Source of the DNA: Candidatus Daviesbacteria bacterium
GTDB taxonomy: Bacteria > Patescibacteriota > Microgenomatia > Daviesbacterales > UBA10151
Assembly (NCBI GenBank): GCA_016186955.1
Contig: JACPKP010000006.1
Location: forward strand, 4,055-68,054
Reading direction: 5' to 3'
Length of the DNA: 64,000 nt
The stretch's first letter is position 1; each line of letters starts with the position of its first letter. Below are positions 3,446 to 61,352 of the stretch, one piece after another. The translations under genes and the position numbers were made by a program. The notes below the pieces were generated by a model that saw only the letters and a list, made by a program, of their open reading frames with translations, had not been told where the DNA came from and did not search any database.

Positions 3446-3916
3446 GTGAGAAAAATGGAAATACCAAACCAGGAAAAACAACTTTATATAAAAAATTTAC
3501 AACTAATTTCCCCAAAAAGGGCTGTAAAATTGGGGATTAAAGCAATTTCACCACAATTTATGTCTCATGTTGTAAATATTTTCTTTAGGCAAGACGTGTT
3601 TAGCCGGATTGATGATGCTCCTTATCGGTTCAGATTAAACCAACCTATGCCGGCAAGGGAATGGATCTTAGGGAAAGAGGTGTTAGATAGTCGGCAAGTT
3701 AGCCATGATTTACCTTCGCATTCAGGAGGAGATTATGGAAAGTGGCTGGCTATACTGGAAGACCAGGGAGATAAAGAATGGCAGAAAGATCGGGTTATAA
3801 AAGCTAAGGAACTGAGAGCCTACTGCTGGAATGATAGGTGGAATGAAAGCCAGCATGTAGAGAGAATCTACAGGGGTTATCTTTTGTATGATCCAAGGCC
3901 AGGGAAATTGCTCTGA
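3446..3916 (+). CDS. hypothetical protein (156 aa)
   Basis: Intact ORF. A possible RBS gaagggaggtgag lies upstream. Confidence 0.4.
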   Translation: MRKMEIPNQEKQLYIKNLQLISPKRAVKLGIKAISPQFMSHVVNIFFRQDVFSRIDDAPYRFRLNQPMPAREWILGKEVLDSRQVSHDLPSHSGGDYGKWLAILEDQGDKEWQKDRVIKAKELRAYCWNDRWNESQHVERIYRGYLLYDPRPGKLL

Positions 3917-4046
3917 AAGCTGGATTTTATTATCCAGTTTGTGATTTAGAAAAACATCATAATTGGTATGAAAAATACCCGATATATGAATTTTCTATTT
4001 TAGAAAATGAGGTAGAATTTAAGGTTGTAAGATAGCCTTTGATTGG

Positions 4047-4078
4047 GAGCAGTAAAGATGGGTACCCATCTTTACTGC
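4047..4078 (+). terminator. perfect 13-bp hairpin (gcagtaaagatgg gtac ccatctttactgc) between the upstream ORF and thrS
   Basis: Perfect inverted repeat read directly. There is no strong T-tract, so it may be regulatory rather than an intrinsic terminator. Confidence 0.45.
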
Positions 4079-4116
4079 TTTAAGATGGATTTAATTTTTG
4101 TTATAGTATTAACATT

Positions 4117-5370
4117 ATGGATGATAAACAAAGCTTACCATTTGAAGATGACAAAAAGTTAAAAGATCATAAACAAATAGGTCAAGAGATGGAACTTTTT
4201 TTCACCGATGAAATTGCTCCAGGTGCGTCTTTTTGGCTTCCTAAGGGAATGGTAATCTTCAAGGAACTTGAGAAATATATTAGAGAATTGACCTTAGATG
4301 CAGGATACCTGGAAACTTCAACTCCAATTATGGTTAAAAGTGAGTTGTTTAAACAATCCGGACATTGGGAGAAATTTGGAGAACACAATATGTATAACTT
4401 AGTACTCTCTGAAGAGAATGACGAGTCTAAAGCTCTTTCATATTCCTTAAAACCTATGAACTGTCCTGAGTCGACTATTCTTTATAGGTTCAGACCAAGA
4501 AGTTATAAAGAATTACCCTTGCGTTTGATGGAGATTGGCAGGTTGCACAGAAGAGAAAAGTCTGGTGAAGTAAACGGGTTACTGCGGGTCAGACAACTGA
4601 CTATGGATGACGCTCATATTTATGCAAGAGAAGGTCAAATTTTTGATGAAGTATCGAATATTTTGGATACTATGGTAGAGTTTTACAAAAAGCTAGGCTT
4701 TGAACCTGAATTTAGATTTGCCACCAGACCTGAAACTAGGGCTGGGACAGATGAAATGTGGGATAAGGCAGAAGAAACATTATCTGAAGCTATAAAGAAG
4801 AAAGGGATTCAAGCAGGAGATAAAAAAGGTGATGGTGCTTTTTATGGACCTAAAATTGATTTACATATAAAGGATGCCCAAAAACGAGAATGGCAGCTGG
4901 CAACAGTCCAGCTCGATTTTCATATGCCGGAGGCATTTGATTTGAGATATATTAACGAGGAAGGACAAGCTCAAAAACCAGTAATGATACATCGTGCAAT
5001 TTTTGGCTCTTTTGAGAGGTTTATTGCTATTTTGACTGAGCATTTTCAGGGGGCTTTCCCTTTGTGGCTGTCACCAGTCCAGGCACAAATTATACCCATT
5101 TCAGATAAACACATCAACTATGCACAAAAATTACTCGGACAATTTAAGTCCCCAGGGATAAGGGTTGAGATTGACGGAAGGGCAGAAACTATGCAGTCTA
5201 AAATTAGGGATGCCCAAACGCAAAAAATCCCCTACATGATTATTGTAGGAGATAAGGAAGAGCAGTCCGGAAGTATTTCGATAAGAACCAGGGGTGGTGA
5301 AAATTTGGCTAACCAAGATATGGAACAATTTTTGGATAAAATAAAACAAGAGATTGCTGAAAAAGTTTAA
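4117..5370 (+). CDS. thrS: threonyl-tRNA synthetase, catalytic plus anticodon-binding core only (417 aa, no N-terminal TGS/editing domains)
   Basis: Aligns to the E. coli ThrRS C-terminal two-thirds: HRKIGKQLDLYH matches KDHKQIGQEMELFF, with PMNCP, the class II motifs, VMIHRAIFGSFERFIAIL and LAPVQ. Confidence 0.85.
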   Translation: MDDKQSLPFEDDKKLKDHKQIGQEMELFFTDEIAPGASFWLPKGMVIFKELEKYIRELTLDAGYLETSTPIMVKSELFKQSGHWEKFGEHNMYNLVLSEENDESKALSYSLKPMNCPESTILYRFRPRSYKELPLRLMEIGRLHRREKSGEVNGLLRVRQLTMDDAHIYAREGQIFDEVSNILDTMVEFYKKLGFEPEFRFATRPETRAGTDEMWDKAEETLSEAIKKKGIQAGDKKGDGAFYGPKIDLHIKDAQKREWQLATVQLDFHMPEAFDLRYINEEGQAQKPVMIHRAIFGSFERFIAILTEHFQGAFPLWLSPVQAQIIPISDKHINYAQKLLGQFKSPGIRVEIDGRAETMQSKIRDAQTQKIPYMIIVGDKEEQSGSISIRTRGGENLANQDMEQFLDKIKQEIAEKV

Positions 5371-12866: not shown

Positions 12867-12895
12867 TTGACTTTTAACCCATAGTATGGTATAGT
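12867..12895 (+). promoter_or_regulatory. sigma70-like promoter ttgact-17-tatagt for the high-GC small gene
   Basis: ttgacttttaacccatagtatggtatagt followed by the RBS ggaggaag. Confidence 0.5.
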
Positions 12896-12926
12896 AATCA
12901 GGCACTTAAATCTTTGGAGGAAGAGG

Positions 12927-13172
12927 ATGAAAGTTTATTACCTTCCCTACGGCGTCAACCATCCGGTTGACACCGAGAGCCTCGCCGCCCTCAAGGCGGC
13001 GGGGATTCCTTTCTCCGTCCTGGAGAAGGACGGAGCGTCCCGGGTTTTAAGAAACCTGGTAGGCGGAGTCGCCTTGGTCGAAGGCCACGGAGCCTTCGAA
13101 ACAGGGCGGTTGATCCGCCGCATCCGCAAGGCCGGGGTTCCGGCCGAGTGCCTGCCGCTGAAGTCACACTGA
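12927..13172 (+). CDS. high-GC small protein (81 aa), function unknown
   Basis: Intact ORF. Its codon usage is GC-rich (GCC, GGC, CGG) in a low-GC context. Confidence 0.5.
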   Translation: MKVYYLPYGVNHPVDTESLAALKAAGIPFSVLEKDGASRVLRNLVGGVALVEGHGAFETGRLIRRIRKAGVPAECLPLKSH

Positions 13173-13175
13173 GCG

Positions 13176-13215
13176 GTAGTTTGCCCCCTACCAGCTGGTA
13201 GGGGGCTTTTTTTGC
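13176..13215 (+). terminator. intrinsic terminator (cccctaccagctggtaggggg plus T8)
   Basis: GC-rich hairpin plus T-tract read directly. Confidence 0.8.
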
Positions 13216-13249
13216 TAAAAAAATCTGTACTTGGTAAAATACAATATAA

Positions 13250-13322
13250 CCGCAGGTGGCAGAACGGTTGATGCAACAGACTGTAAATCTGTGCCAAGTA
13301 GGTTCGACTCCTACCCTGCGGA
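13250..13322 (+). tRNA. tRNA-Tyr (anticodon GTA), class-I-like with a 5-nt variable loop
   Basis: CCGCAGG acceptor stem pairs with CCTGCGG. Anticodon stem ACAGA/TCTGT with loop CTGTAAA, T-arm GTAGG-TTCGACT-CCTAC, discriminator A. Confidence 0.8.
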
Positions 13323-13378
13323 CACAGCGAAGCGAAGGACACAGCGAAGCGAAAGACACAGGGCAAGCTTTACCCTGC
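13323..13378 (+). repeat. tandem acacagcgaagcgaa(g/a)ga units followed by a second copy of the tRNA-Tyr 3' end (taccctgcggac)
   Basis: Read directly. taccctgcggac occurs at 13312, 13365 and 14498. Confidence 0.6.
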
Positions 13379-13551
13379 GGACCGCAAAATATTTCTTTTT
13401 AGACTTAAACTGCCTATGAATAAAAGATGTCAAGACTTCAATATTGCACTTTTGTTTTGCTTAGTCAGAAGGACAAAAAATTCTATAAAGGACCTATAAG
13501 TCATGTGAGGGAATTATAAGATATTTATTTTTTATGCTATAATCAATACTT

Positions 13552-18133: not shown

Positions 18134-19309
18134 CTAACGATCCAAAGCCGGCGCATTCCAGTTGTCGCCACGTACGAGCGCCGGATCCCGCCTTGGCGGG
18201 CGAGAGGCAGCCTGTTTCCGGTTTGAGTCCTGTTCCTGGTCCAGCTTGTCCCAGGGAATGGCCCCCCCTAGCTGTAGTAGGGCGCCCAGGTAACCGTACT
18301 CCTCGTTGCCTGTAGCGACGTTGGACAGCTCCATGATACCCAAGGCATACCGAGTGATGTTACGTTCGAGACGGACGTAGTCCGCTCCAACGTTGACACC
18401 GAGCATCTTGAGCATCATGTCGCGGGTAGTAGCTCCGACAGTTGCCGGAAGTGCGGGGTCCTCCAGGATCCCCTTAATGCGCGTCGCGTCGTGCGCGAGA
18501 GCCCGAGCAACCGGAATTCCAAGGCCGCCAAAGACCTTGTTGATCCGGTTGATGACGGCTTCTGCCTCATCGCGCAGGCCGGCGGTGTCAGGCGGTTGGA
18601 GCATGCCTGGTGGCATAACAGCGGCACCCCCACGGCCGGTCTGAGCCATGGCGAGGACGGAAAGGGCCATCATAGGATTGTTCACCCCCTTGGCCCACGT
18701 ATCGGTCCAGTTGATGAGCAGCTCGTTGAAGCTGCGAAGCGCCGGCCAGAGTTCGGTGTTGAGCCGGGCGAGGAAAGCGCTCTTGCGCTTGTCGCTCATG
18801 AAATTGCCCGGGTACCCGAGCGCCGACAGGACATCCCCGTAACGGCGTTGCTGAGCCAGCTGGTAGACCTTCTTGAAGTTCTCACCGGCAGGCTCTTCCT
18901 GCTCATCGGCAAACTGCTCTGCACGCGCCAGCAGGACTTCAGGTAGTTCGTACAACCCGACCCTTGCAGCGATTGCAGCTCTCATAGCCGACATCACGTC
19001 GATCCGCTCAACCTTGAGCATCCCTCCGACCTTGAGCATCTCCAGGAAGCTTGAGTCGTCAGGAACGGTCGGAAGCGTGTCGAGCGAAGCCGGTTCGGCA
19101 GTGACCTGTTCGGCCGCAGGTGGCGCGGGGGCGAAGGCTTTAGCAGCCTTCTTGGCCGCGATCACGGTGCATCCGGTGATTTCCCGGATTTCATACTCGT
19201 TTAGGAGCACCATTTCGGCATCGCCCGCGACCCCCTGGTCGGCAAGCTTGCCGGTTTGCTCCTCCGAGAAGCCCAGCTCTGTGAGCCGGGTCTTCAGTTC
19301 CTCGTTCAT
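18134..19309 (-). CDS. high-GC hypothetical protein (about 391 aa; start MNEELKTRL preceded by AAAGGAG)
   Basis: Ala/Arg/Gly-rich with GC-rich codons. I used the internal start at 19307..19309, which has a strong RBS. Confidence 0.5.
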   Translation of the reverse strand: MNEELKTRLTELGFSEEQTGKLADQGVAGDAEMVLLNEYEIREITGCTVIAAKKAAKAFAPAPPAAEQVTAEPASLDTLPTVPDDSSFLEMLKVGGMLKVERIDVMSAMRAAIAARVGLYELPEVLLARAEQFADEQEEPAGENFKKVYQLAQQRRYGDVLSALGYPGNFMSDKRKSAFLARLNTELWPALRSFNELLINWTDTWAKGVNNPMMALSVLAMAQTGRGGAAVMPPGMLQPPDTAGLRDEAEAVINRINKVFGGLGIPVARALAHDATRIKGILEDPALPATVGATTRDMMLKMLGVNVGADYVRLERNITRYALGIMELSNVATGNEEYGYLGALLQLGGAIPWDKLDQEQDSNRKQAASRPPRRDPALVRGDNWNAPALDR

Positions 19310-19401
19310 GAAAAACTCCTTTTTGTTTGCTGTCCACAACACATAGCTGTGGATGCGGGGAAACTTCCGTTTCCTCCTTTCTTCACAGTTTCGGGCTGTT
19401 A

Positions 19402-20526
19402 CTAAGAATCGGCTTCTAAAGGTGTAACGTTTTCGCCTTGCCTCGAGTGGCTGATGGGCCATGCGTGGCGGTAGTGGGCGAATACATCTCCCGGGCGGGG
19501 GATGTCCTGGTAGCCGGGCAGCTTAGACTGAGCGCCAAAATGCTCCTGCGCTACCTGAACCATCCGCCAAACCTGATTGAGGTTGGCGGCGTCAATCGTT
19601 ACCTTATCGCCGGTCCGCAGGAACTCGATTAGACCCTGCTTGCTCGGCTTTGACGCCTCCGTCACATAGACGAGGGCTGCACGCACGTCAGCCAAAAGAC
19701 CCGGGTTTTCAACCTGGATGATCCGGCTGCGTCCTCCCAGCTTCTCCGCCCACCAATCCGTAGTGTACGGAAGGAGTCGGCCGGTATAAGTAGGGACTTG
19801 CAGTACGAAAGGATGCCAATGCTCCAAGAGCTGCCGGCAGATTTCCTCCGTCGCCATATTCAAGAAATCAGCTGCCTGGCCAAGATATTCCCTGACGCCC
19901 TCAGCGGTCACGAACCCGCGTCCGATCTCGTCTAAGGCGATCGTCAAATAGCCCTTGAGACCGTAGTAGGTCCATGTGTCCGCGTAGACCGACAGGGCGT
20001 AGTACAGGCCCAAATCGTAATCTTCGGCTGACGAGTCGTTTCCCATGCTTGCAGGCTGGAGCAGCCGCACCTGTTCGGCGCTCCGCTCATCAGACTCAAA
20101 CTGAGAAACTTGAACGACCGGAAGTCCGTCGTTATGGACATTGTAAAAGTCATTTACAACGCCTGTTGCGAGCTGCGGGTTGTACCGGGTTCGCACTCCA
20201 TCAAGCAGCTTGTACTGTCGCTCGGCTGTGCGGAAGAAATCCCCAACATATTGGGATGTACTCCCGGTGCCGTCGAAAAGACTGAGAACCGGCAAGGAAA
20301 CACCGTGGGTCAGAAGATAGGTACCTGGTTCATCACTGGGAACCATCGCGTTATGGCTTTCCCGCGGCTTCTTGCCGACGATGTCGACATTGGGATGAAG
20401 GTGGCCTGTTACGTCGCGGTACGTTTTTCCCGCATCGTGAACACCCTCATGCCGTTGATTCATAGAGCGGACAGTCGCCCGGTAGGATTCCGGGTCAAAT
20501 TGCCGTACATTTTGGGGATTCCCCAT
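19402..20526 (-). CDS. high-GC hypothetical protein (374 aa); possible vWA-like MIDAS-type motif LFDGTGST
   Basis: RBS ggaaaggag before the ATG. The flanking promoter region is AT-rich. The motif assignment is tentative. Confidence 0.45.
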   Translation of the reverse strand: MGNPQNVRQFDPESYRATVRSMNQRHEGVHDAGKTYRDVTGHLHPNVDIVGKKPRESHNAMVPSDEPGTYLLTHGVSLPVLSLFDGTGSTSQYVGDFFRTAERQYKLLDGVRTRYNPQLATGVVNDFYNVHNDGLPVVQVSQFESDERSAEQVRLLQPASMGNDSSAEDYDLGLYYALSVYADTWTYYGLKGYLTIALDEIGRGFVTAEGVREYLGQAADFLNMATEEICRQLLEHWHPFVLQVPTYTGRLLPYTTDWWAEKLGGRSRIIQVENPGLLADVRAALVYVTEASKPSKQGLIEFLRTGDKVTIDAANLNQVWRMVQVAQEHFGAQSKLPGYQDIPRPGDVFAHYRHAWPISHSRQGENVTPLEADS

Positions 20527-27264: not shown

Positions 27265-27317
27265 ACTTAATCAAAATTATACATAAATGAAAATTTTAAG
27301 AAAGTGTTAAAAAAATT

Positions 27318-28322
27318 TTACTTGCCTGTAAGAAAATCCCAAATAATCTGCCAATAACTACGCTCTGTGCTCACACCTGAAACACCCGGGGTTGGGTAAG
27401 CATAACTAGGTGTGCCATAAGATGGGGTGTCATAGCTTGGGGTGCCATAGGATGGAGTTCCATAAGATGGGGTGTCATAGCTTGGTGTGCCATAAGATGG
27501 AGTAGCATATGAGTCACTAGGGGTGCCATAACTAGGCGTACCATAAGATGGGGTTCCATAGGAAGGGGTGCCATAACTTCCTGGGGTGGGATAAGCATAC
27601 CCTGGGGTGTAATAAGTCCCACTTGGTGTTCCATAAGTCCCTGGTGTGTAGTAGCTTGGTGATGGATAGCTGTAGCCTGTCCCTGGGGTGGGATAAGCAT
27701 ATGGTGATGGATATGCGTAACTAGCGCCTGGAGTCGGATAATAATAATTTGGCGAAGCATAAGGACTATAGTATGTGCTCGGAGTCACATACCCTGAATC
27801 CGGCGTGATGTAACCGCTTCCAGGAGTATAGTAAGGACTTGTATAAGTGCCTCCCGGAGTGTAATAGGATGGTGAATAATAAGTCGGGGTGTAGTAATTT
27901 GGTGTTGAGTATGGCGTGTAGTAAGACGGGGAAGTATAGGTTGAGCCCTCGGGAGGGGTGTAATATTGCGGGGTTGAATAGGGTGTATAGTAGGTTGGGG
28001 TCGAATAAGGAGTCGGTGTGTAATAAGTAGGAGTGTTGTAAACAGCAGGAGTATAGTAAGAAGGGCTGGTATAAGTACTTCCTGCTGGTGGTGTTGGATA
28101 AGTAGGAGTGCTATAAGCAACCGGAGTATTATAGGCAGGCGGAGTTGGATAAGTTCCTGGTGTGTAATAATTTGGTGTTGTATAAGGAGGCGGCGGGGTA
28201 TAGTAGGACGGGCTTGTATAATTTGAACCTGCTGGAGGAGTGTAATAGGTTGGGGTTGAATAGGTTGGAGGAGTGTAATAGGTTGGGGTTGAATAACCTC
28301 CGCCTGTCCATGGTGTGTAGTA
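27318..28322 (-). pseudogene. Tyr/Pro/Thr-rich low-complexity tail (about 334 codons) in frame with 28323..30017 and separated from it by a single TGA; ends in YWQIIWDFLTGK
   Basis: Both track ORFs lie in the same minus-strand frame (coordinates 0 mod 3). My hand translation of 27789..28322 gives YYTPWTGGGYSTPTYYTPP... with no stop. Confidence 0.5.
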
Positions 28323-30017
28323 TCATGGTGTGTAGTATTGCGGTGTGGTGTAGGTTGGTGGGGTTGTATAACTCGGTGTAGTGTAAGTAGAACCTGCTGG
28401 AGGAGTGTAATAATAAGGAGTCATATACTGAGGAGGTGTGTAGTAATAAGGTGTTGTGTAATTTGAACCTGCTGGAGGAGTGTAATAAGAAGGCGTTGAA
28501 TAAGTTGGGGTTGGGTATGCACCGGTCGGCGTTGGGTAATTATTCCATGGTGTGTAGTAATTTGGTGTTGTGTAATTTGAACCTGCTGGAGGAGTGTAAT
28601 AAGAAGGCGTTGAATAAGTTCCTGGTGTGTAGTAATTTGGTGTTGTGTAATTTGAACCTGCTGGAGGAGTGTAATACAACGGCGTTGTATAGAAATTAGT
28701 TACAGGTGGTGTCACATACTCAATGTTGTGCGGGGGGGTGTAATAAGTACCCGGAATATAAATGTCGGGTGGCCTGGGCGCCTTTTCATTAAAACCCGGG
28801 CAAGCATCTTTATGATCCTTACAATAATCATAACAACCCCCAGGAGTTGTACAATCACCCATTTCTTTAATCGGTTCATGTTTGACTTCTGTACCAGGGG
28901 TAAAATAAACATAGGGCGTATAATCATCTGTAGGTCTTTGGGAATTACCATCAAATCCTTTGCAGCTTTCAGCCGTTGGGTTTGCCTTACAATAGTCATA
29001 ACATTCACCAGGCGTTTTACAATTTCCCATATCGGCCCTGGCTTCGAAATGAGCATTGGGTACAGTGGGATCAATTCCATCTGGAGCTTGATCCTGGCAA
29101 GAGTCACCATTCCAGTATTTATCCGCTCCAACACAATCTGTAGCCGGTTTAGTCTCTGAAACTGCAGTACATGCTCCTCCCGGCCCATGAAATTCATTAG
29201 AGGGACAAACAAACGGTACATAGTAACCACTTGAATCCGGTGCATAGCTTCTGCATTGGTCCGGATTAGATTCACAATAATTTCTACATGAAGTTACATC
29301 CGTACAACCGCCAGGTCCCCGGAAATCATTTCCCGGGCTAAAGCTCTGGCATGCTTTAAAATTGTTTGGATCAGAACAAAAGGAACCACAGGTCTCCGGG
29401 GTTTGACATCCCCCCGGACCGCCGGTCTCTTTTCCACCCAATAATCCTGTTTTATTAGCAAATTCATTACATTTATCCTGATTGTTCGGATCAGCACAAA
29501 AAGCGCTACAATTCTCTTTAGAATCACAACCCAAATCCTGTTTTGCAGTTTCTAATATCTCTTTTTTATCAGGTTGTTTGACATACCCTCCCAAGATATC
29601 ATGCCTTTTAGCATAGGATTCGCAAGTATCATGGTTGTCATCTTTCGAACAAAAATCCAAACAAGCGCTTGTGGAACCACAACCCAATTCTTTATTTGTA
29701 TCATCCCAAAATTTTGTATCACCATAAACAGTAGGATCATCTTTATAAAAACCGTTTTGCTTCGCATATTCAGAGCAATTATTGTAATTTATCGGGTCAT
29801 TACAAAAATTTGTGCAATCTTCCAGGTTTTTACAACTTCCTAAATCAATAATGGGGTAGGTCAAATCCTGAGAAGTACTATTTGTTGTGCCATTTGATGT
29901 CGGAGATGCTGGTTGTGCATAAATAATGTTTGTAAAAATCAATAAAAGAAAAGCAACTAAAAATAAGGTTAAAGTTTTAGTTAAATTCAAGGATAGGTCT
30001 TTTGTTAAATTGTTCAT
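28323..30017 (-). CDS. secreted Cys-rich repeat protein (564 aa), paralogous to 22494..24359, truncated by TGA at 28323..28325
   Basis: Signal peptide and the same Cys modules (GSCKNLEDCTNFCNDPINYNNCSEYAKQNGFY...). A PY repeat tail begins before the stop. Confidence 0.6.
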   Translation of the reverse strand: MNNLTKDLSLNLTKTLTLFLVAFLLLIFTNIIYAQPASPTSNGTTNSTSQDLTYPIIDLGSCKNLEDCTNFCNDPINYNNCSEYAKQNGFYKDDPTVYGDTKFWDDTNKELGCGSTSACLDFCSKDDNHDTCESYAKRHDILGGYVKQPDKKEILETAKQDLGCDSKENCSAFCADPNNQDKCNEFANKTGLLGGKETGGPGGCQTPETCGSFCSDPNNFKACQSFSPGNDFRGPGGCTDVTSCRNYCESNPDQCRSYAPDSSGYYVPFVCPSNEFHGPGGACTAVSETKPATDCVGADKYWNGDSCQDQAPDGIDPTVPNAHFEARADMGNCKTPGECYDYCKANPTAESCKGFDGNSQRPTDDYTPYVYFTPGTEVKHEPIKEMGDCTTPGGCYDYCKDHKDACPGFNEKAPRPPDIYIPGTYYTPPHNIEYVTPPVTNFYTTPLYYTPPAGSNYTTPNYYTPGTYSTPSYYTPPAGSNYTTPNYYTPWNNYPTPTGAYPTPTYSTPSYYTPPAGSNYTTPYYYTPPQYMTPYYYTPPAGSTYTTPSYTTPPTYTTPQYYTP

Positions 30018-30253
30018 TTGTTTAAAAATGGATTTTTATATGCCTGAAAAGGGTTAAGATATTGGGTGTCTTTGTTGAAAGGATTACGGTACCCGGTTTT
30101 TAAGGTTACTTTGGGGCTTTGTTTTTTACTTAAACCCGGAAGATTTTTAAAAGGGTTATTAATAAAACCGAAATAAATAAGGAGGCTGCCCGCAATAACA
30201 AGCAGTAACAACAACGGTAATGCTAGATGAATTACTCCTTTTTGTTTCCCCAC
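30014..30253 (-). CDS. small single-TM protein with a C-terminal NPF-repeat tail, paralogous to 24356..24658
   Basis: Ends YRNPFNKDTQYLNPFQAYKNPFLNK. Start overlaps the upstream stop. Confidence 0.5.
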   Translation of the reverse strand: MGKQKGVIHLALPLLLLLVIAGSLLIYFGFINNPFKNLPGLSKKQSPKVTLKTGYRNPFNKDTQYLNPFQAYKNPFLNK

Positions 30254-40164: not shown

Positions 40165-40887
40165 TTAATGGCTTTCGTGTTTTTCGCTCAAAAGCACCAT
40201 AAAAACCAGCGTCAGCATCATAAATACCGCAGCTTGTACAAACCCAACTATAATCTCCAGAAAATAAAAGGGGAGCGGCAGCAGGAAAGCAGCAATGTTT
40301 GAGATTGTTGCCAAAACTACCTCTCCTGCAAATATATTACCAAAAAGCCGAAAGGAAAGCGACATTATCTTGGTAAACTCAGATACTATCTCCAACATCC
40401 CGACGAAAAGGAAGATCGGGTTTAGCGAAACCCAGCGGATTAGATAATTTTTAATGCCCAGATATTTTACCGCCAGGATATGGGTTGCCGCTGCGGAAAC
40501 CAGCGCCAAAGCCAAGGTAGTATTTAAATCTGAGTTCATTGAGCGAAGAAGCGGCGCCCCATTAAAACTGATGGTGGAAAACCCCGGTAATAGGCCGAGG
40601 AGGTTTCCCATCACAATCAGCAGGAAAAAAGTCATGACAATTGGAAAAATAACAGCAGTTTTAGAGTGTGCCAGGTCTTCAACGGTCTGAAACCCCAATT
40701 CTACAACCATCTCAAAAAAGTTCTGGATCCCAGAAGGAACCTTCTGAATTCTCCTGGTTGCCAGAAAACTTAGTATTACCAAAAACCCCATTGTTATCCA
40801 GGTTACAAGCAGAGTATTGGTTAAAGGCAGGCTGCCGATTTGTCCGATAATTTCCGGTTTCAAAACTATTTCATTTTCCATATTCAA
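40165..40887 (-). CDS. atpB: Fo ATP synthase subunit a
   Basis: Polytopic membrane protein with the conserved R in LSFRLFGNIFAGE. Confidence 0.85.
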   Translation of the reverse strand: MNMENEIVLKPEIIGQIGSLPLTNTLLVTWITMGFLVILSFLATRRIQKVPSGIQNFFEMVVELGFQTVEDLAHSKTAVIFPIVMTFFLLIVMGNLLGLLPGFSTISFNGAPLLRSMNSDLNTTLALALVSAAATHILAVKYLGIKNYLIRWVSLNPIFLFVGMLEIVSEFTKIMSLSFRLFGNIFAGEVVLATISNIAAFLLPLPFYFLEIIVGFVQAAVFMMLTLVFMVLLSEKHESH

Positions 40888-40954
40888 TCCTAAGTATTGT
40901 AACCAATAGCAAGGTGACGAGTCAACAGATTCAACTGTAGAAGTTTAGGAGTTG

Positions 40955-41028: not shown

Positions 41029-41172
41029 GACAGCTTCTTTGTTAAATCCTGAACAATTACCTTGTCATGCTGGTTCACCTGGAACCCTTGACAACTATGG
41101 GTTAGATGTGTTAGGATTCTTTTTACGCACATTGACAAGGGGTTGGGGAGGAAAAATTCGGAGGAGGAGAAA

Positions 41173-41511
41173 ATGGGATTTTTGAGTAGTTGGTTCGGTT
41201 CGCCGGATGAAGTCCGGCTCACCCGGGAGGAGCTGACCGAGGCTTTGTCCTTGATCGGCACCACCCCAGCGGGGTTGGCTGGGCTCGCCAAGCAAGACTC
41301 TGCGGAGCTTTCCCGGCGGGCGGCCGAGGAAACCAAAAATGCCGACACGGCCGAGGCGGCCGTGTTAGCAGCGTACAACAAGCAGCTTCGTCAGCTGCAG
41401 CTCGAGCGGGACGGTGGTCTCGCTAATGCCGCATACACGCGGGGTTTGGCGCGAATCATTGACCGCAAGGCACAAATCCAAGCCTCGCTCGCGGGAAAGC
41501 TCGCGGGCTAA
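41173..41511 (+). CDS. high-GC small protein (about 112 aa) with its own promoter-like ttgaca at 41131, RBS GGAGGAG and terminator
   Basis: GC-rich codons. Start chosen at the ATG after GGAGGAGGAG. Confidence 0.45.
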   Translation: MGFLSSWFGSPDEVRLTREELTEALSLIGTTPAGLAGLAKQDSAELSRRAAEETKNADTAEAAVLAAYNKQLRQLQLERDGGLANAAYTRGLARIIDRKAQIQASLAGKLAG

Positions 41512-41559
41512 CAGAACATCCACACCTCCTCCTCTTCCCCTTTTGCCGGCCTGGGGCCG

Positions 41560-41597
41560 GCGTGCGGCCCCCTACCACCGTGGTAGGGGGCTTCTTT
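41560..41597 (+). terminator. intrinsic terminator (ccccctaccaccgtggtaggggg plus a T-run), near-identical to the terminator at 13176
   Basis: Hairpin plus cttcttttta. Confidence 0.75.
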
Positions 41598-41695
41598 TTA
41601 TTGGAGTCTGCCGAAAACCGTGGACTGTAGTCCACGGATGAAGGCGACGGAAAGAAGCGGAGCTTCATCTTTTTTAAAATGTTATAATACCGATT

Positions 41696-43294
41696 ATGTC
41701 TTCTGAAAAGTTTGAAACTTTAAGCGGCATACCCCTGGAAACTTATTACTCCCCTAAAAAACGCGGGAAAAATTATAAAATAAACCTGGGCAATCCCGGT
41801 GAATATCCTTACACAAGGGGGATCCACAAAACTGGTTACCGGGGGAAACTTTGGACCATGCGCCAGTTTGCCGGCTTTGGGACAGCCGAGGAAACCAACG
41901 GGAGGTTTAAATATCTTTTGTCAGAGGGCCAAACAGGGCTTTCCACAGCCTTTGACCTGCCAACCCTTTACGGAAGGGATACCGACGACCCGGGCAGGGA
42001 TGCCACCGAACCACCTGCATGGCCTGACTTTGGCGAAGGCGGGGTAGCATGCTCATCACTTTTGGATATGGAGGCGCTGTTTAAGGATATCCCCCTGGAA
42101 GATGTCTCCGTATCAATGACCATTAACGGCCCTGCCTCAATAATTTGGGCGATGTTTTTGGCAAACAGTGATAACAGGGGGTTTGAGAGAAAAAATTTAC
42201 GGGGGACGCTGCAAAATGATATATTAAAAGAATTCCATGCTCAAAACGAACAGCTTTTTCCGCTCCGGCCCAGTATGAGGCTGGTCGCCGATACTATTGG
42301 TTTTGCCATAAAAGAAGTCCCGCTTTTTAACCCGGTCTCCGTTTCCGGTTACCACATCCGGGAAAAAGGGTCAACAGCGGTCCAAGAGCTGGCTTTTACC
42401 TTATCCGACGGGTTTGCCTATCTGGATGAATGCCTCACCCGGGGCATGGATATTGATGAAGTGGCGCCAAGGCTTAGTTTTTTCTTTAACTCCCACAATG
42501 ATTTTTTTGAAGAGATCTGCAAATTTAGGGCTGCCAGAAGAATTTGGGCCAAGGAATTGAAGGAAAAATACGGGGCAAAACAGGAACGAAGTTGGAAACT
42601 CAAATTCCATACCCAAACCGCAGGCTGCAGTCTTTACCAAAACCGGATTGCCAATAACGAAGTCAGGATCACCCTGCAGGCTTTAGCAGCTGTATTGGGA
42701 GGGACGCAAAGCCTGCACACCGATGCCATAGACGAGGCTGAATCCCTGCCTACCCAGGAAGCAGTTAAAAAAGCCCTCCGCACCCAGCAGATCATCGCTT
42801 ATGAATCCGGGGTTGCCAAAACCGTTGACCCTTTGGGCGGAAGTTATTTTATAGAAGGGCTGACAAACCATATGGAACAAGAGGCAAGAAAATATTTTGA
42901 GGAGATTGAAAAAATAGGCGGTGTTATAGCTGCCGCTGAAGAAGGCTATCAAAAATATGTGATTGAAGAGGCCGGGTTTGAATATGAGATGGCCAAGGAC
43001 CGGGGGGATCTGGTGATCGTCGGGGTGAATAAATTTTTAGACCCAAGGGATGCGCCCACTGTCCGCAACAAAGACCCACAAGGTTTATCAAGACAATTGG
43101 ACAGGCTAAAAAATTTAAGGGCAAACCGCAACAATGATGAGGTTTTAAAATCCTTAGCTAAATTAAAAGATGTATGTCAAGGCCATGAAAATGTCATGCC
43201 GGCGCTGGTTGATGCAGCCAAAGCATATGCCACACTTGGTGAGATGACAAATAAAATGAAGGAGGTGTTTGGGGAAGCGCAAAGGCCAACTTAA
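41696..43294 (+). CDS. methylmalonyl-CoA mutase family, catalytic (substrate-binding TIM-barrel) domain only, 532 aa
   Basis: YPYTRGIHKTGYRGKLWTMRQFAGFGTAEETNGRFKYLLSEGQTGLSTAFDLPT is the MCM N-terminal signature. No B12-binding domain. Confidence 0.75.
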   Translation: MSSEKFETLSGIPLETYYSPKKRGKNYKINLGNPGEYPYTRGIHKTGYRGKLWTMRQFAGFGTAEETNGRFKYLLSEGQTGLSTAFDLPTLYGRDTDDPGRDATEPPAWPDFGEGGVACSSLLDMEALFKDIPLEDVSVSMTINGPASIIWAMFLANSDNRGFERKNLRGTLQNDILKEFHAQNEQLFPLRPSMRLVADTIGFAIKEVPLFNPVSVSGYHIREKGSTAVQELAFTLSDGFAYLDECLTRGMDIDEVAPRLSFFFNSHNDFFEEICKFRAARRIWAKELKEKYGAKQERSWKLKFHTQTAGCSLYQNRIANNEVRITLQALAAVLGGTQSLHTDAIDEAESLPTQEAVKKALRTQQIIAYESGVAKTVDPLGGSYFIEGLTNHMEQEARKYFEEIEKIGGVIAAAEEGYQKYVIEEAGFEYEMAKDRGDLVIVGVNKFLDPRDAPTVRNKDPQGLSRQLDRLKNLRANRNNDEVLKSLAKLKDVCQGHENVMPALVDAAKAYATLGEMTNKMKEVFGEAQRPT

Positions 43295-43297
43295 ATT

Positions 43298-44341
43298 ATG
43301 GTTGAATGGGAATTTAAAAAATTAAACCCAAATAGTGTAACTTTTGCCAGGCTTGATGGAGAGCTGGAAAAATTAAAGGCAGACTATACAAAAGTTCTCA
43401 GGATGGCTTTAGAATCTAAAGTTTCCTCTCCTTCCTTTTCAAAATATCCGGTTAGAGGCAGCCTGGGGACACCGGACTCCCACAAAATGTTTGCAGGAAA
43501 TATTGAGTATGGGTTTTGCCAGGCGCTTCATATGGAGGAAGCTGCTGTGGCATCATTCCGCTCAATATATAAAAGGCCGGGCCGGCAGCGGGCTATTTTG
43601 GGGATTGTTGCAGGAAATCCGGAAATTTTTACCGGACCTTGCGGAAACTGTAGGGACATCCTGCTTGATGAATTTAACCCAAACCTTGAGATAGTTTCAG
43701 GCTCCCCAACAGGCGGCACGGCAATTGTCTCAACACTTGGGGATTTTCTATTTGACAGGTTTAAAAAAATCCCCAGGCAAAATGCGCTAACCCTGGCGCC
43801 GGATGGTTTTATCACCAAAGTCTGGGACACGCTGCGGGAAGGGGAGAGGCTTACTTTTGACGGGTGCTCACCAGACAATATCCATCCGGAGAGAAGATAT
43901 TATGCTTCCATTTCCACAAAACGGAATATTTATTTTGGCGGACTGGACCTAATGTGTGATGACCATCCCATTTATCCGCTTAGGGATGCAATAAGAAGCG
44001 CACGGAGAACACATGATGCGGATATAAATTATGTTATAGTCCTGGGTAAAAATCCCTCAAACAACCCTCCCCATGTCATGTACAAAGACAGGCAGCACCT
44101 TTTCGAGCTTAACTGCCAGCAGGAAATGCTTTTAGGAAGACAACAGAACCCCAAGGTTTACCTGGTGTCCCAAAAAGAGCGGGGGGGTATAGGTAATGTC
44201 TGGCAAACTTCTGTCAAGGAGTGGCTGCCTTGCCCTTTTAGTGCAAGAAATTTTGGGGATGAATTTGTAAAAAATTTAACTCAATATTATCAAAACAAAA
44301 ACAACTCCAAACCTCCCCAGCTCTTTTGGCGGATAAATTAA
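43298..44341 (+). CDS. cytidine/deoxycytidylate-deaminase-family zinc-binding protein (347 aa)
   Basis: HMEEAAV ... PCGNCRDIL fits the H(A/C)E...PCxxC deaminase motif. Confidence 0.5.
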   Translation: MVEWEFKKLNPNSVTFARLDGELEKLKADYTKVLRMALESKVSSPSFSKYPVRGSLGTPDSHKMFAGNIEYGFCQALHMEEAAVASFRSIYKRPGRQRAILGIVAGNPEIFTGPCGNCRDILLDEFNPNLEIVSGSPTGGTAIVSTLGDFLFDRFKKIPRQNALTLAPDGFITKVWDTLREGERLTFDGCSPDNIHPERRYYASISTKRNIYFGGLDLMCDDHPIYPLRDAIRSARRTHDADINYVIVLGKNPSNNPPHVMYKDRQHLFELNCQQEMLLGRQQNPKVYLVSQKERGGIGNVWQTSVKEWLPCPFSARNFGDEFVKNLTQYYQNKNNSKPPQLFWRIN

Positions 44342-60792: not shown

Positions 60793-61352
60793 TCGTTCCT
60801 TAAAAAAGCTTCTGTGGTAGCAATATTTTGCAGGATCGGCACACCTGCTTTTTGTTTTAGTGTGATGGAAATTTTAACCTTTGCTGCCGTGGTAGGGGGC
60901 ACTTCAGCTCCGCTGGCATCAAAATACTGAAACAATACATTATTTACATTAAAAGCCAGTATCTGGTCCGCAGCAGGCCTTTTGCTCACACTGTCCGGAA
61001 AAACTTTATATCTCAGTTTATCAATATCAAAATAATACAGCGCATAGTCATATGTATCCGGGATAAAGTTACCTGACGTATCCAGCGCCGGCAACTTCAG
61101 CGTTAAAACTTGGGCTGAAGTAGTGTATGTAGGCGAAGAAACAGGATATCCGGATGCTACACCACCCGAACCCTTAATACTGGCTTGTATGCTTGACAAA
61201 ACATTGTTGGCAGAAATCCCTTGGTCCACTTTTGAATTTTGCAGATAATAAAGACCGGTGTTTTGCACTATCAGCATAAAAGCATATACTCCTATTATTG
61301 CAATAATTGTGATAACAATTATTGTCTCAAGCAGTGTAAAACCTTTTTCCAC
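60789..61352 (-). CDS. type IV (pseudo)pilin, prepilin motif GFTLLE
   Basis: KGFTLLETIIVITIIAIIG is the class III signal. Confidence 0.7.
   Translation of the reverse strand: MEKGFTLLETIIVITIIAIIGVYAFMLIVQNTGLYYLQNSKVDQGISANNVLSSIQASIKGSGGVASGYPVSSPTYTTSAQVLTLKLPALDTSGNFIPDTYDYALYYFDIDKLRYKVFPDSVSKRPAADQILAFNVNNVLFQYFDASGAEVPPTTAAKVKISITLKQKAGVPILQNIATTEAFLRND

Follow-up and report, generated by a model that had tools for sequence, protein, structure and literature searches.

In the icaR mRNA of Staphylococcus aureus, a 3′ UTR anti-Shine-Dalgarno (anti-SD) motif, UCCCCUG, pairs with the SD sequence in the 5′ UTR, as was demonstrated experimentally (PMC3868564). Experiments in Bacillus subtilis also showed that anti-SD-like sequences far from the ribosome-binding site act at long range (PMC12697547). 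The type I toxin mRNAs hok and aapA1 (the latter from Helicobacter pylori) have a long-distance 5′-3′ interaction (PMC5416894, PMC6733600), and in the B. subtilis hbs mRNA an interaction between the 5′ and 3′ UTRs controls ribonuclease access (PMC5737220). The two loci described here, cassette 1 and cassette 2, lie in a 64,000-nt stretch of a Candidatus Daviesbacteria contig, called the window throughout. CPR bacteria are mostly uncultured, and their post-transcriptional control and many orphan small proteins are almost uncharted.

Each cassette would be transcribed as a monocistronic unit from an extended -10, sigma-70-type promoter, with a GGAGG SD, a GC-rich ORF and a strong intrinsic terminator (Table 1). 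The transcript ends were placed from consensus matches only, with the cassette 1 start inferred from the position of its -10 element; the predicted RNAs span 12901-13213 (~310 nt) and 41124-41599 (~475 nt). A preliminary description of this DNA had recognized both units as self-contained arrangements of promoter, GGAGG, ORF (81 and 112 aa) and terminator with deviant composition, the first of them directly 5′ of tRNA-Tyr. Both were located as described, and tRNA-Tyr(GTA) was found where expected. The near-identity reported for the two terminators also held, in that the hairpins share a sequence and the sharing is non-random (0 of 100 shuffles), but the T-run of cassette 1 is T7 rather than the T8 given earlier. 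The balance of the evidence tips slightly towards reading the two loci as vertically inherited, lineage-specific small-protein genes that are not mobile and that have a common self-closing mRNA design.

Table 1. Features of the two cassettes, with positions in the window
Feature	Position	Strand	Remarks
Cassette 1 promoter-like site	12867..12895	+	TTGACT, 17-nt spacer, TG-extended TATAGT
Predicted cassette 1 transcript 5′ end, GGCACUU	12901..12907	+	5′ strand of end helix; partner 13146-13152
ORF1 Shine-Dalgarno, GGAGG	12916..12920	+	Read from sequence; predicted pairing with CUUCC, codons 6-7
ORF1, HYW46_03660, 81 aa	12927..13172	+	ATG start; orphan small protein
GAGUGCC, cassette 1	13146..13152	+	3′ strand of end helix; within codons Ala-Glu-Cys-Leu
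Cassette 1 intrinsic terminator	13183..13213	+	GCCCCCTACCAG/CTGGTAGGGGGC, then T7
tRNA-Tyr(GTA)	13250..13323	+	Conserved neighbour 3′ of cassette 1
Cassette 2 promoter-like site	41088..41117	+	TTGACA, 18-nt spacer, TG-extended TAGGAT
CGCAC near predicted cassette 2 transcript 5′ end	41126..41130	+	5′ strand of end helix; partner 41562-41566
Purine-rich leader including SD GGAGGAGGAG (41160-41169)	41137..41169	+	Inverted repeats I2, I16, I18
ORF2, HYW46_03810, 112 aa	41173..41511	+	ATG start; predicted helical orphan, fast-evolving
Pyrimidine-rich anti-SD-like box in 3′ UTR	41523..41544	+	CACCUCCUCCUCUUCCCCUUUU
3′ UTR hairpin GCCGGCC-UGG-GGCCGGC, then GUGCG	41545..41566	+	Inverted repeats, fold, pairing
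Cassette 2 intrinsic terminator	41567..41599	+	GCCCCCTACCAC-c-GTGGTAGGGGGC, then TTCTTTTT

Cassette 1 sits between PBP1A and tRNA-Tyr. The cassette was found with the same promoter, terminator and adjacent tRNA-Tyr in two related metagenome contigs, L033 and L034. PBP1A is also kept on the 5′ side in L034 (85% amino acid identity), where an extra insert of ~130 nt lies between the terminator and the tRNA. The cassette 1 sequence is identical in three independent Logan assemblies, so its junctions are not assembly artefacts. Contigs with cassette 1 derive from the groundwater runs SRR12113383, SRR12113384 and SRR12113430. Cassette 2 adjoins the atp operon and has the same placement in one related MAG, L020, whose AtpA and AtpB are 85% and 69% identical to those of the window. 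The neighbours of the cassettes are PBP1A, tRNA-Tyr, an HD-domain protein, ATP synthase genes, methylmalonyl-CoA mutase and a cytidine-deaminase-like gene. The AT-rich promoters resemble those of the host and are conserved; that of cassette 1 is kept in L033 and L034 and that of cassette 2 in L020, as TTGACAACTATAGGTTGAATGTGTTAAGGT. The exact 10-mer TAACCCATAG occurs twice in the window, each time in a cassette promoter spacer, at 12875-12884 in cassette 1 and inverted (CTATGGGTTA) at 41095-41104 in cassette 2.

Both ORFs are 62% GC in a window of 42% GC. Their GC3 values of 0.74 (ORF1) and 0.71 (ORF2) compare with 0.386 ± 0.067 (maximum 0.53) for the 43 other long ORFs, counted without the 18-20.6 kb block, and both are outliers by ~5 standard deviations. 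ORF1 has accumulated 38 strong-to-weak substitutions (G/C to A/T) against 17 weak-to-strong, which indicates that its GC-richness is not at equilibrium and may be partly a relic of foreign origin rather than a product of selection for folding. Prophage morons are independent promoter-gene-terminator units of deviant GC inside prophages, and the preliminary description had suggested that the cassettes are moron-like genes from one mobile element or phage family, perhaps that of the GC-rich 18-20.6 kb block, with the shared terminator as the signature of the element. The GC3 deviation, the promoter and terminator of each unit and the drift of ORF1 towards AT, as expected of ameliorating foreign DNA, all fit this idea. 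A 374-aa ORF of the block matches the phage family phrog_2971, and the metagenome contigs in which a looser form of the hairpin stem was matched (at least 120 matches) are mostly GC-rich, with a median of 58%. However, the position is not variable, as it would be for a mobile cassette: the same neighbour, tRNA-Tyr or the atp operon, is kept in L033, L034 and L020, in genomes ~85% identical in conserved proteins. The host-like, conserved promoters also argue against such an origin, as do the absence of integrase or transposase genes and of cassette-bounding repeats beside either cassette. The 18-20.6 kb block contains no copy of the hairpin. No cassette relatives were found in IMG/VR or in phage and plasmid collections at the DNA or protein level, including tblastn against phages and plasmids, and the promoter and 3′ UTR patterns had 0 matches in IMG/VR. 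Derivation from the element family of the block is not supported, and a moron-like origin in general is unlikely. The common mobile origin proposed earlier survives as a shared origin of, or constraint on, the expression signals (the 10-mer and the GCAC/GUGC helix described below), and its mobility is not supported by the synteny. An ancient foreign origin of the ORFs themselves is conceivable. Having its own promoter and terminator does not by itself mark a GC-rich island in an AT-rich genome as recent mobile DNA.

An integron cassette is a promoterless ORF with attC, an imperfect inverted repeat of 60-120 nt, near intI. Judged by anatomy only, the two loci are different, with promoter-like sites of their own and hairpins that are perfect palindromes of 24-25 nt followed by U-runs; none of the window ORFs that were scanned matched an integrase family.

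Both ORFs look coding. The dN/dS of ORF1 is 0.24-0.28 in frame and at least 0.86 off-frame (Fisher p ~3-6e-5). This purifying selection is frame-specific in all three pairwise comparisons and extends along the whole 76-81 codon ORF, and the indel among the orthologues is in frame. ORF2 was compared with the only relative found, a 127-aa ORF in L020. The local alignment score of 69 exceeds the 32 ± 5.7 of shuffled sequences, and the similarity (~25% identity) is significant only in the annotated frames (0/0, z = 7.4). GC content at the three codon positions of ORF2 is 0.65/0.50/0.71, and GC shows a three-base periodicity in the annotated frame. Every cassette copy retains the SD and the start codon. 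Coding signatures, whose absence had been named as grounds for giving up the original proposal, are thus present in both genes, in frame only.

Word-indexed searches (three) and an exhaustive HMMER search of proteins recovered just two relatives of ORF1, both of 76 aa, and none of ORF2. Two giant cadherin-repeat proteins were discarded as homologues; their scores were sums of weak repeat matches. Scans of both proteins against Pfam, NCBIfam and PHROG gave sub-threshold noise only, the PDB sequence search matched neither protein, and BLASTP showed ORF1 and ORF2 to be unrelated. The AlphaFold2 models are too poor to use (pLDDT 52 and 61), and a Foldseek search of the PDB with both models gave no fold match (E at least 1). 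Predicted secondary structure, of low confidence, is mixed alpha/beta for one product and helical for the other, and neither appears hydrophobic on reading its sequence. The homologue check proposed in the preliminary description leaves both proteins as orphans, with two relatives for ORF1, and assigned no function.

Folding of the cassettes is predicted to be exceptional. Cassette 1 has a fold z-score of -10.3, cassette 2 one of -5.7 and its L020 copy one of -9.3. In a lower-resolution scan of 266 segments across the window, the cassettes came 2nd, 5th and 6th. On the plus strand they fold more stably than on the minus strand, by 18-22 kcal/mol; the z-score of the cassette 2 minus strand equals that of its plus strand. 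The cassette 1 consensus fold has 114 pairs with 92% of cells paired, and 14 of the pairs are double changes, compared with 6.5 ± 1.8 in shuffles (0 of 500 reach 14) and 1-6 in slid controls. These covariation statistics are thin, as the collections hold three cassette 1 lineages and two cassette 2 lineages.

A short helix is predicted to close each transcript. In all five modelled transcripts a GCAC near the 5′ end is paired to a GUGC near the 3′ end, with probabilities of 0.6-1.0. For the cassette 1 strand GGCACUU the predicted values are 0.83-1.0 in the window, 0.45-0.63 in L033 and 0.84-1.0 in L034. For cassette 2 they are 0.88-1.0 in the window and 0.99 for the equivalent GCAC/GUGC of L020. 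The 3′ strand of the cassette 1 helix lies inside a 15-nt stretch, CCGGCCGAGTGCCTG, with no difference among the three orthologues even at synonymous sites, and no variation is seen in seven of the eight consensus end-helix pairs. Because the end-closing helices barely vary, they contribute no covariation evidence.

Compared with L020, cassette 2 shows much stronger conservation of its UTRs than of its CDS. The 3′ UTR is 91% identical over 75 nt and the CDS cannot be aligned by blastn. The pyrimidine box of L020 is identical from the second base (ACCTCC...) on, and its 3′ UTR hairpin is 1 bp shorter through the loss of one base on each side. This pattern, the extreme z-scores and the cassette 1 covariation would suit structured non-coding RNAs, or units that function mainly at the RNA level, with the ORFs incidental to GC-rich sequence. 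GC-rich DNA readily gives long ORFs, as illustrated by shadow ORFs of 122-139 aa on the opposite strand of the cassettes, and neither ORF matches a protein family. Against this stand the frame-specific purifying selection on ORF1 in all three comparisons and its in-frame indel, the ORF2 similarity that is seen only at the protein level and in frame, the SD and start codon of every copy and the three-base periodicity. The cassettes also match no Rfam family. Only two tRNAs pass a gathering-threshold Rfam 15 scan of the window, and permissive scans of both cassettes gave sub-threshold matches only, in cassette 1 mostly to the terminator region. A purely RNA-level function is quite unlikely on these grounds; the cassettes could still be dual-function RNAs.

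By sequence, both hairpins have the features of intrinsic terminators, with stems of 10-12 bp containing 8 G-C pairs and a U-run on the 3′ side. The cassette 1 hairpin is a perfect 12 + 12 nt palindrome (13183-13206) followed by T7, and begins 11 nt after the stop codon. The cassette 2 hairpin, GCCCCCTACCAC-c-GTGGTAGGGGGC, spans 41567-41591 with TTCTTTTT directly 3′, and begins 56 nt after the stop codon. The pattern CCCCTACCA-N0-8-TGGTAGGGG was found exactly twice in the window and had 0 matches in 100 shuffles; a lone 12-mer arm is also present in the 64 kb beside the two full copies. The remaining terminator-like sites in positions 1-60000 of the window do not have the hairpin sequence of the cassettes, and within the window the motif is not common after ordinary genes. 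Outside the stem the two loci are not identical, and neither a flanking repeat nor a target duplication is present. Orthologous cassette 1 terminators (L033, L034) read GCCCCTTGCCAG-loop-CTGGCAGGGGGC, in which a G-C pair replaces an A-T pair by compensatory change. In the L020 copy of cassette 2 the stem is unchanged, GCCCCCTACCA-tc-TGGTAGGGGGC, followed by T7.

The hairpin sequence is itself generic. The exact stem occurs 24 times, singly and in unrelated phyla, in the GTDB representative genomes (596 Gb), a set that apparently lacks the source genome, which gave no match. The hairpin is also found 3′ of a Clp ATPase gene in L016, another low-GC (39%) MAG. L020 was the sole relevant match in the hairpin scans of IMG/VR, GTDB representatives and metagenomes; the rest were unrelated singletons. 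Independent appearance in so many genomes, L016 among them, is what chance convergence of two strong GC-rich hairpins would predict, and the likeness would then say nothing about the genes. However, the 24 exact matches in 596 Gb never include two in one fetched locus, which makes two copies within 64 kb very unlikely to arise by chance. The shuffles of the window gave not one match, and the units also share the spacer 10-mer and the GCAC/GUGC closure. Convergence is very unlikely as the explanation. The terminator identity most likely goes back to one template from which both expression modules descend, or to a constraint common to the two within this genome.

REP- or MITE-like elements exist as many dispersed copies per genome and have conserved flanks or a cognate transposase. 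REP, MITE and uptake-sequence hairpins that double as terminators resemble the present case in placing a short identical palindrome 3′ of unrelated genes. As far as the 64 kb of the window shows, the present case differs in having two visible copies, with identity confined to the stem. The cassette terminators drift by compensatory change among orthologues as ordinary terminators do. A REP-type GTAG motif was ruled out as the orthologues carry GCAG. A weak likeness of the terminator arm to the T-arm/acceptor of tRNA-Tyr (11 of 14 bases) was also set aside; the orthologous terminators change and the tRNA is constant.

The SD of both cassettes is predicted to be paired, at P up to 0.97 in cassette 1. 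In the model of the full cassette 1 transcript, pairing probabilities are 0.85-1.0 for seven of the eight SD bases (12916-12923), with one A unpaired. In cassette 2, bases 41160-41167 are predicted to pair with 41525-41532 (P ~0.81), and the last two bases are mostly unpaired. The icaR-like arrangement thus applies to cassette 2 only, where the conserved CACCUCCUCCUCUUCCCC (41523-41540) would pair with the first eight bases of GGAGGAGGAG by compositional complementarity. Within the box, CACCUCCU matches the 3′ end of 16S rRNA. The energy of the cassette 2 5′/3′ UTR duplex is no better than with shuffled 3′ UTRs (p 0.15-0.35), a test that is uninformative because the complementarity is compositional (purine versus pyrimidine). 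With folding limited to -40..+60 around the start, the SD pairing of the cassettes (0.72-0.73) lies above the median of 17 other genes (0.59), but the cassettes are not outliers in this low-power control.

Type I toxins are typically membrane peptides of 30-60 aa. Type I toxin-antitoxin-like loci, in which a 5′-3′ interaction would keep a toxin mRNA inert and an antisense RNA would control it, are highly improbable here, even though the compact mRNAs, the 5′-3′ pairing and the paired SD are reminiscent of aapA1 and hok (PMC5416894, PMC6733600). The products of 81 and 112 aa exceed the ~60 aa of such peptides, are not visibly hydrophobic and have a predicted alpha/beta or helical structure, and a consensus scan, which could miss such a site, found no antisense promoter-like site within or just 3′ of the cassettes. 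It is barely credible that ORF1 is a leader-peptide-type sensor, in which stalling at Tyr codons Y4, Y5 and Y8 modulates terminator read-through into tRNA-Tyr: ORF1, terminator and tRNA-Tyr are adjacent in three genomes and every copy has 2-3 Tyr codons within its first eight codons, but the tRNA is preceded by a conserved promoter-like site of its own (13212-13240), purifying selection covers the entire ORF, the Tyr codons are ~230 nt away from the terminator and the ~130-nt insert of L034 separates terminator and tRNA.

The vertically inherited small-protein genes favoured here encode unrelated proteins and would share a design for expression, made up of the spacer 10-mer, the GCAC/GUGC closure, a predicted occluded SD and a hairpin of the same sequence. 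The closed GC-rich fold would hide both RNA ends and may thereby protect them from exonucleases. It would also keep the ribosome-binding site paired, giving low translation until the fold is opened. The partner of the SD would be codons 6-7 in cassette 1 and the conserved anti-SD-like pyrimidine box of the 3′ UTR in cassette 2. A broader and rather doubtful extension is that Daviesbacteria-type CPR bacteria own a reusable RNA 'chassis' that hosts unrelated small ORFs and defines a limited group of co-regulated RNAs, hyper-stable and translationally gated (or dual-function). The chassis would combine an operator-like promoter-spacer motif, the GCAC/GUGC end helix, SD occlusion and one specific terminator hairpin. 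Trans-acting factors with sequence-specific recognition of the hairpin and the promoter motif could then maintain identity within the genome while the orthologues drift.

Coding constraint is seen in both orphan genes, and in cassette 1 the same sequence also shows RNA-structure constraint. The loci are a modest lead and a concrete, testable case for small-protein gene control in CPR bacteria. If the self-closing design is real, icaR-type 3′ UTR anti-SD control and stabilization by end pairing would extend to a distant lineage with reduced genomes, and the design would provide a search pattern for more members.

The described systems share different parts of this design. Like prophage morons, each cassette is an autonomous transcription unit of deviant GC; unlike them, the cassettes lie outside any prophage, have housekeeping genes as neighbours and keep their synteny in diverged genomes. 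The hok and aapA1 mRNAs resemble the cassettes in their compact primary transcript, paired ends and predicted paired SD. The cassette products are larger and not visibly hydrophobic, and no antisense promoter or antitoxin RNA was detectable. The hbs mRNA likewise comes from a small-protein gene, with stability proposed to depend on pairing of the mRNA ends. Its sequence is unrelated, and for the cassettes the role in stability is a proposal. The likeness to icaR is in cassette 2, where the pyrimidine-rich 3′ UTR box CACCUCCUCCUCUUCCCC is predicted to pair with the SD of its own mRNA and conservation is higher in the 3′ UTR than in the CDS. The cassette mRNA, known here from sequence and prediction, is much shorter than icaR and GC-rich throughout, and the SD partner in cassette 1 would lie in the coding region instead of a 3′ UTR box. 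To the icaR arrangement the cassettes add a predicted GCAC/GUGC helix that would join both ends of the transcript.

ORF1 (HYW46_03660) and ORF2 (HYW46_03810), named from protein matches in a Candidatus Daviesbacteria MAG, are both 62% GC in a window of 42% GC. Their GC3 values of 0.74 and 0.71 compare with 0.386 ± 0.067 for 43 other long ORFs in the window. The two GC-rich small units with near-identical terminators seen in the preliminary description were thus found again. The hairpin of its terminators also stands; the thymidine run of cassette 1 has seven residues (T7), not eight, and the hairpin positions are amended in the table.

Features of the two cassettes and the adjacent tRNA gene, in window coordinates
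Feature	Position	Strand	Basis
Cassette 1 promoter-like site, TTGACT-17-TG-TATAGT	12867-12895	+	consensus match
Cassette 1 SD, GGAGG	12916-12920	+	sequence
ORF1, 81 codons, ATG start	12927-13172	+	ORF call
Cassette 1 terminator, perfect palindrome GCCCCCTACCAG/CTGGTAGGGGGC, then T7	13183-13206 (palindrome)	+	repeat/terminator search
tRNA-Tyr(GTA), downstream of cassette 1	13250-13323	+	tRNA call
Cassette 2 promoter-like site, TTGACA-18-TG-TAGGAT	41088-41117	+	consensus match
Cassette 2 SD region, GGAGGAGGAG	41160-41169	+	sequence
ORF2, 112 codons	41173-41511	+	ORF call
Cassette 2 terminator hairpin GCCCCCTACCAC-c-GTGGTAGGGGGC, then TTCTTTTT	41567-41591 (hairpin)	+	repeat/terminator search

ORF1 and ORF2 are most likely real protein genes because dN/dS is frame-specific in ORF1 and ORF2 combines frame-specific protein similarity with GC periodicity; the possibility raised earlier that the ORFs lack coding signatures is not borne out. 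In all three pairwise comparisons of ORF1, dN/dS was 0.24-0.28 in the annotated frame; the remaining two frames gave 0.86-3.1. Third codon positions differ most often (Fisher p about 3-6e-5), and the sole internal indel is 9 nt. ORF2 was compared with its counterpart on L020, a contig from a related genome. BLASTP gave no match between the two proteins; local BLOSUM62 alignment scored 69 versus 32 ± 5.7 in 2000 shuffles. The annotated pair had z = 7.4 among the nine frame combinations and the rest reached at most 1.1. Only the annotated frames are stop-free, and both copies have GC periodicity with GC2 lowest. ORF2 evolves very fast, with identity of about 25% compared to 69-85% for neighbouring proteins. 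Neither protein has a Pfam, NCBIfam, PHROG or PDB match, and the AlphaFold models were too weak for use.

Both cassettes have orthologues in conserved settings. The only relatives of ORF1 in protein collections are P0002 and P0004 (76 aa each). Their contigs, L033 and L034 from related metagenomes, carry the cassette 1 block in order, with promoter TTGACnTTTAACCCATAGTnTGnTATAGT, SD, ORF, hairpin terminator and tRNA-Tyr(GTA), and a PBP1A gene (85% amino acid identity) lies upstream in L034 as in the window. L020 was found by a hairpin scan of GTDB representatives and proved to carry the cassette 2 orthologue. There the cassette diverges from the atp operon, whose AtpA and AtpB share 85% and 69% identity with those of the window. 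Its promoter is the same, its ORF has 127 codons, and its 3' UTR and terminator are almost identical; a cytidine-deaminase-like gene comes next. The corresponding gene in the window (43298-44341) lies beyond an additional methylmalonyl-CoA mutase gene (41696-43294), which is missing at that position in L020; related genomes therefore differ in gene content directly beside cassette 2. L020 (CAZFVS010000020.1) is titled 'uncultured Gammaproteobacteria bacterium', yet it is 43% GC and its atp genes share 69-85% identity with their Daviesbacteria counterparts in the window, so its taxon label or binning looks doubtful. Three independent assemblies contain an identical cassette 1, which is therefore not a chimera.

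Polarised substitutions in ORF1 comprise 38 strong-to-weak (G/C to A/T) and 17 weak-to-strong changes, which means that GC is being lost. The loss is greatest in L034, where some helices have decayed. This pattern fits a cassette 1 sequence that was ancestrally GC-rich, possibly foreign, with erosion slowed by structural constraint, and the cassette sequence was possibly acquired by ancient transfer into a common ancestor. Recent mobile insertion is not supported. The preliminary description had read the common terminator as a hint of a common mobile origin, with moron-like genes from the element family of the 18-20.6 kb insert as one possibility. What survives of that reading is that the expression signals have one origin or are under a shared constraint; the mobile morons do not, given the synteny in L033, L034 and L020, the absence of integrase or transposase genes and bounding repeats flanking either cassette, and the absence of relatives in IMG/VR, phage or plasmid collections. 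The GC-rich block itself (18134-20526) contains no copy of the hairpin. It is 54-62% GC and holds two overlapping minus-strand ORFs of 442 aa (GC3 0.70) and 374 aa. Pfam and NCBIfam gave no match to either; the shorter one, of 374 aa, belongs with phrog_2971, a family of unknown function.

The window has exactly two matches to the hairpin pattern, and none of 100 shuffles has any. No other terminator-like site within 1-60000 carries the sequence, so in the window it is not the common terminator of ordinary genes that had been considered earlier. A looser version of the stem had at least 120 metagenome matches, mostly in GC-rich contigs, and the hairpin type is generic. The exact 10-mer TAACCCATAG likewise has only two copies in the window, one in each cassette promoter spacer in opposite orientations. 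Both terminators and both 10-mers are identical within this genome, though orthologues drift: L020 keeps the stem of cassette 2 intact, and two paired positions of the cassette 1 stem differ in L033 and L034. Two explanations remain for the terminator identity: both modules derive from one template, or both are under a shared sequence-specific constraint. As the identity ends at the stem edges, ordinary gene conversion is unlikely. Chance is so improbable that it is ruled out, because the exact stem has 24 matches in 596 Gb of GTDB representative genomes (singletons in unrelated phyla, one of them L020), never with two copies in one fetched locus, versus two within 64 kb here.

Several related sequences were noted. 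L016 (JAZDKU010000005.1), from a MAG of 39% GC that may belong to CPR bacteria, carries the hairpin too (CCCCCTACCA-tc-TGGTAGGGGG, 570-591), in this case behind an ordinary gene for a Clp-type ATPase. Three further genome matches among the 24 are titled CPR (one Paceibacterota, two Saccharibacteria), which may represent enrichment. A lone 12-mer, GTGGTAGGGGGC, identical to the 3' arm of the terminator in cassette 2, lies at 60888-60899 (about 0.003 chance matches expected by our own base-composition estimate). It is inside a minus-strand pilin-like gene with an N-terminal methylation motif (60789-61352), so the mRNA of this gene would carry the complement of that arm. A 24-nt inverted repeat (75% complementary) joins the divergent atp-operon promoter (40886-40909) and the cassette 2 promoter (41095-41118); its atp copy holds a one-mismatch form of the shared 10-mer, TAACCAATAG, and the repeat is less conserved in L020.

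Transcript ends were inferred from consensus sites. The 312-nt cassette 1 transcript folds at -172.6 kcal/mol (z = -10.3) and the 477-nt cassette 2 transcript at -238.2 kcal/mol (z = -5.7); the L020 copy has z = -9.3. The cassettes rank 2nd, 5th and 6th in a scan of 266 window segments of 240 nt (mean z -0.57, sd 1.57), and the 18-20.6 kb block is moderate (z -2.6 to -4.0). The plus strand folds 18-22 kcal/mol better than the minus strand, with a clear z-score gap for cassette 1 only. An RNAalifold consensus of the three cassette 1 orthologues has 114 pairs with 92% of cells paired. Fourteen pairs changed on both sides. Shuffling the columns gave 6.5 ± 1.8, with none of 500 shuffles reaching 14, and slid controls gave 1-6. 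Among the changed pairs are one that flipped from C-G to G-C and several that went from C-G to U-A, by synonymous substitutions in Leu-Ala-Ala-Leu-Lys-Ala-Ala codons, and the terminator has a compensatory A-T to G-C change. With three sequences, this covariation is suggestive, not conclusive.

In all five transcripts (cassette 1 in the window, L033 and L034; cassette 2 in the window and L020), GCAC at the predicted 5' end pairs with GUGC near the 3' end with an ensemble probability of about 0.6-1.0. The cassette 1 helix joins 12901-12907 to 13146-13152, a partner inside an invariant 15-nt stretch coding Ala-Glu-Cys-Leu, and the cassette 2 helix joins 41126-41130 to 41562-41566, immediately before the terminator. 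These helices are invariant among orthologues, so no covariation evidence comes from them. Both window transcripts are predicted to have a paired SD, with codons 6-7 in cassette 1 (P up to 0.97) and with the 3' UTR box CACCUCCUCCUCUUCCCC in cassette 2 (P about 0.81). This box contains the anti-SD sequence of the 16S rRNA 3' end. L020 conserves the box in a 75-nt stretch of 91% identity, and the CDS is not alignable by blastn. The UTR complementarity reflects purine versus pyrimidine composition, and the duplex does not outperform those formed with shuffled 3' UTRs. SD pairing in a local -40 to +60 window was 0.72-0.73 for the cassettes versus a median of 0.59 in 17 other genes, and neither is an outlier.

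Other features of the window were recorded. A third self-contained small-gene unit lies on the minus strand at 1915-2402. Its promoter fits the consensus perfectly (TTGACA-17-TATAAT), its SD is GGAGG, its ORF encodes a hydrophobic protein of about 113 aa without a family match, and CGCCCCCAGCAATGGGGGCG plus T7 forms a strong terminator. GC-richness and the GCAC/GUGC design are both lacking in this unit. The strongest fold signal is intergenic (3841-4080, z = -8.7, 35% GC), directly upstream of a class II aminoacyl-tRNA synthetase gene (4117-5370), with a perfect 14-bp hairpin at ~4049-4078. It matches no Rfam family or T-box and may be a leader of a kind not yet recognised. The final 12 nt of tRNA-Tyr, TACCCTGCGGAC (13312-13323), are repeated 59 nt further downstream at 13371-13382, beyond a tandem pair of 17-mers, GGACACAGCGAAGCGAA (13320-13353), and the second copy forms a hairpin (13357-13379) mimicking the tRNA acceptor stem. 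An acceptor C-to-T change is present in both copies in L033 (519-585), so the two evolve together; the repeat may be what remains of an att-like duplication, or it may mimic the tRNA end. At 27300-30020 the plus strand is strongly G-rich (GC skew +0.4 to +0.58). GC at the second codon position is 0.51-0.69 in the minus-strand ORFs there (27318-27788 and 28323-30017), which have no family match and by eye look like genes for low-complexity, repetitive proteins.

We lean slightly toward reading the cassettes as conserved orphan genes for small proteins, whose mRNAs are unusually structured and close on themselves. Each mRNA would be compact, with its 5' end tied to the 3' region and a strong hairpin at the 3' end. 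The closed fold would limit exonuclease access and occlude the ribosome-binding site, keeping translation low or conditional. Identification of the cassettes as type I toxins was rejected on product size and hydrophobicity, and a promoter consensus scan found no antisense promoter at either cassette. The proposed mechanism has experimentally established parallels in icaR mRNA, where the 3' UTR pairs with the SD (PMC3868564), in long-range aSD-like sequences of B. subtilis that repress translation and speed decay (PMC12697547), in the 5'/3' UTR interaction of hbs mRNA (PMC5737220), and in type I toxins, whose primary transcripts are inert (PMC5416894, PMC6733600). The cassette design would extend this known 5'-3' and anti-SD mRNA control in a new form.
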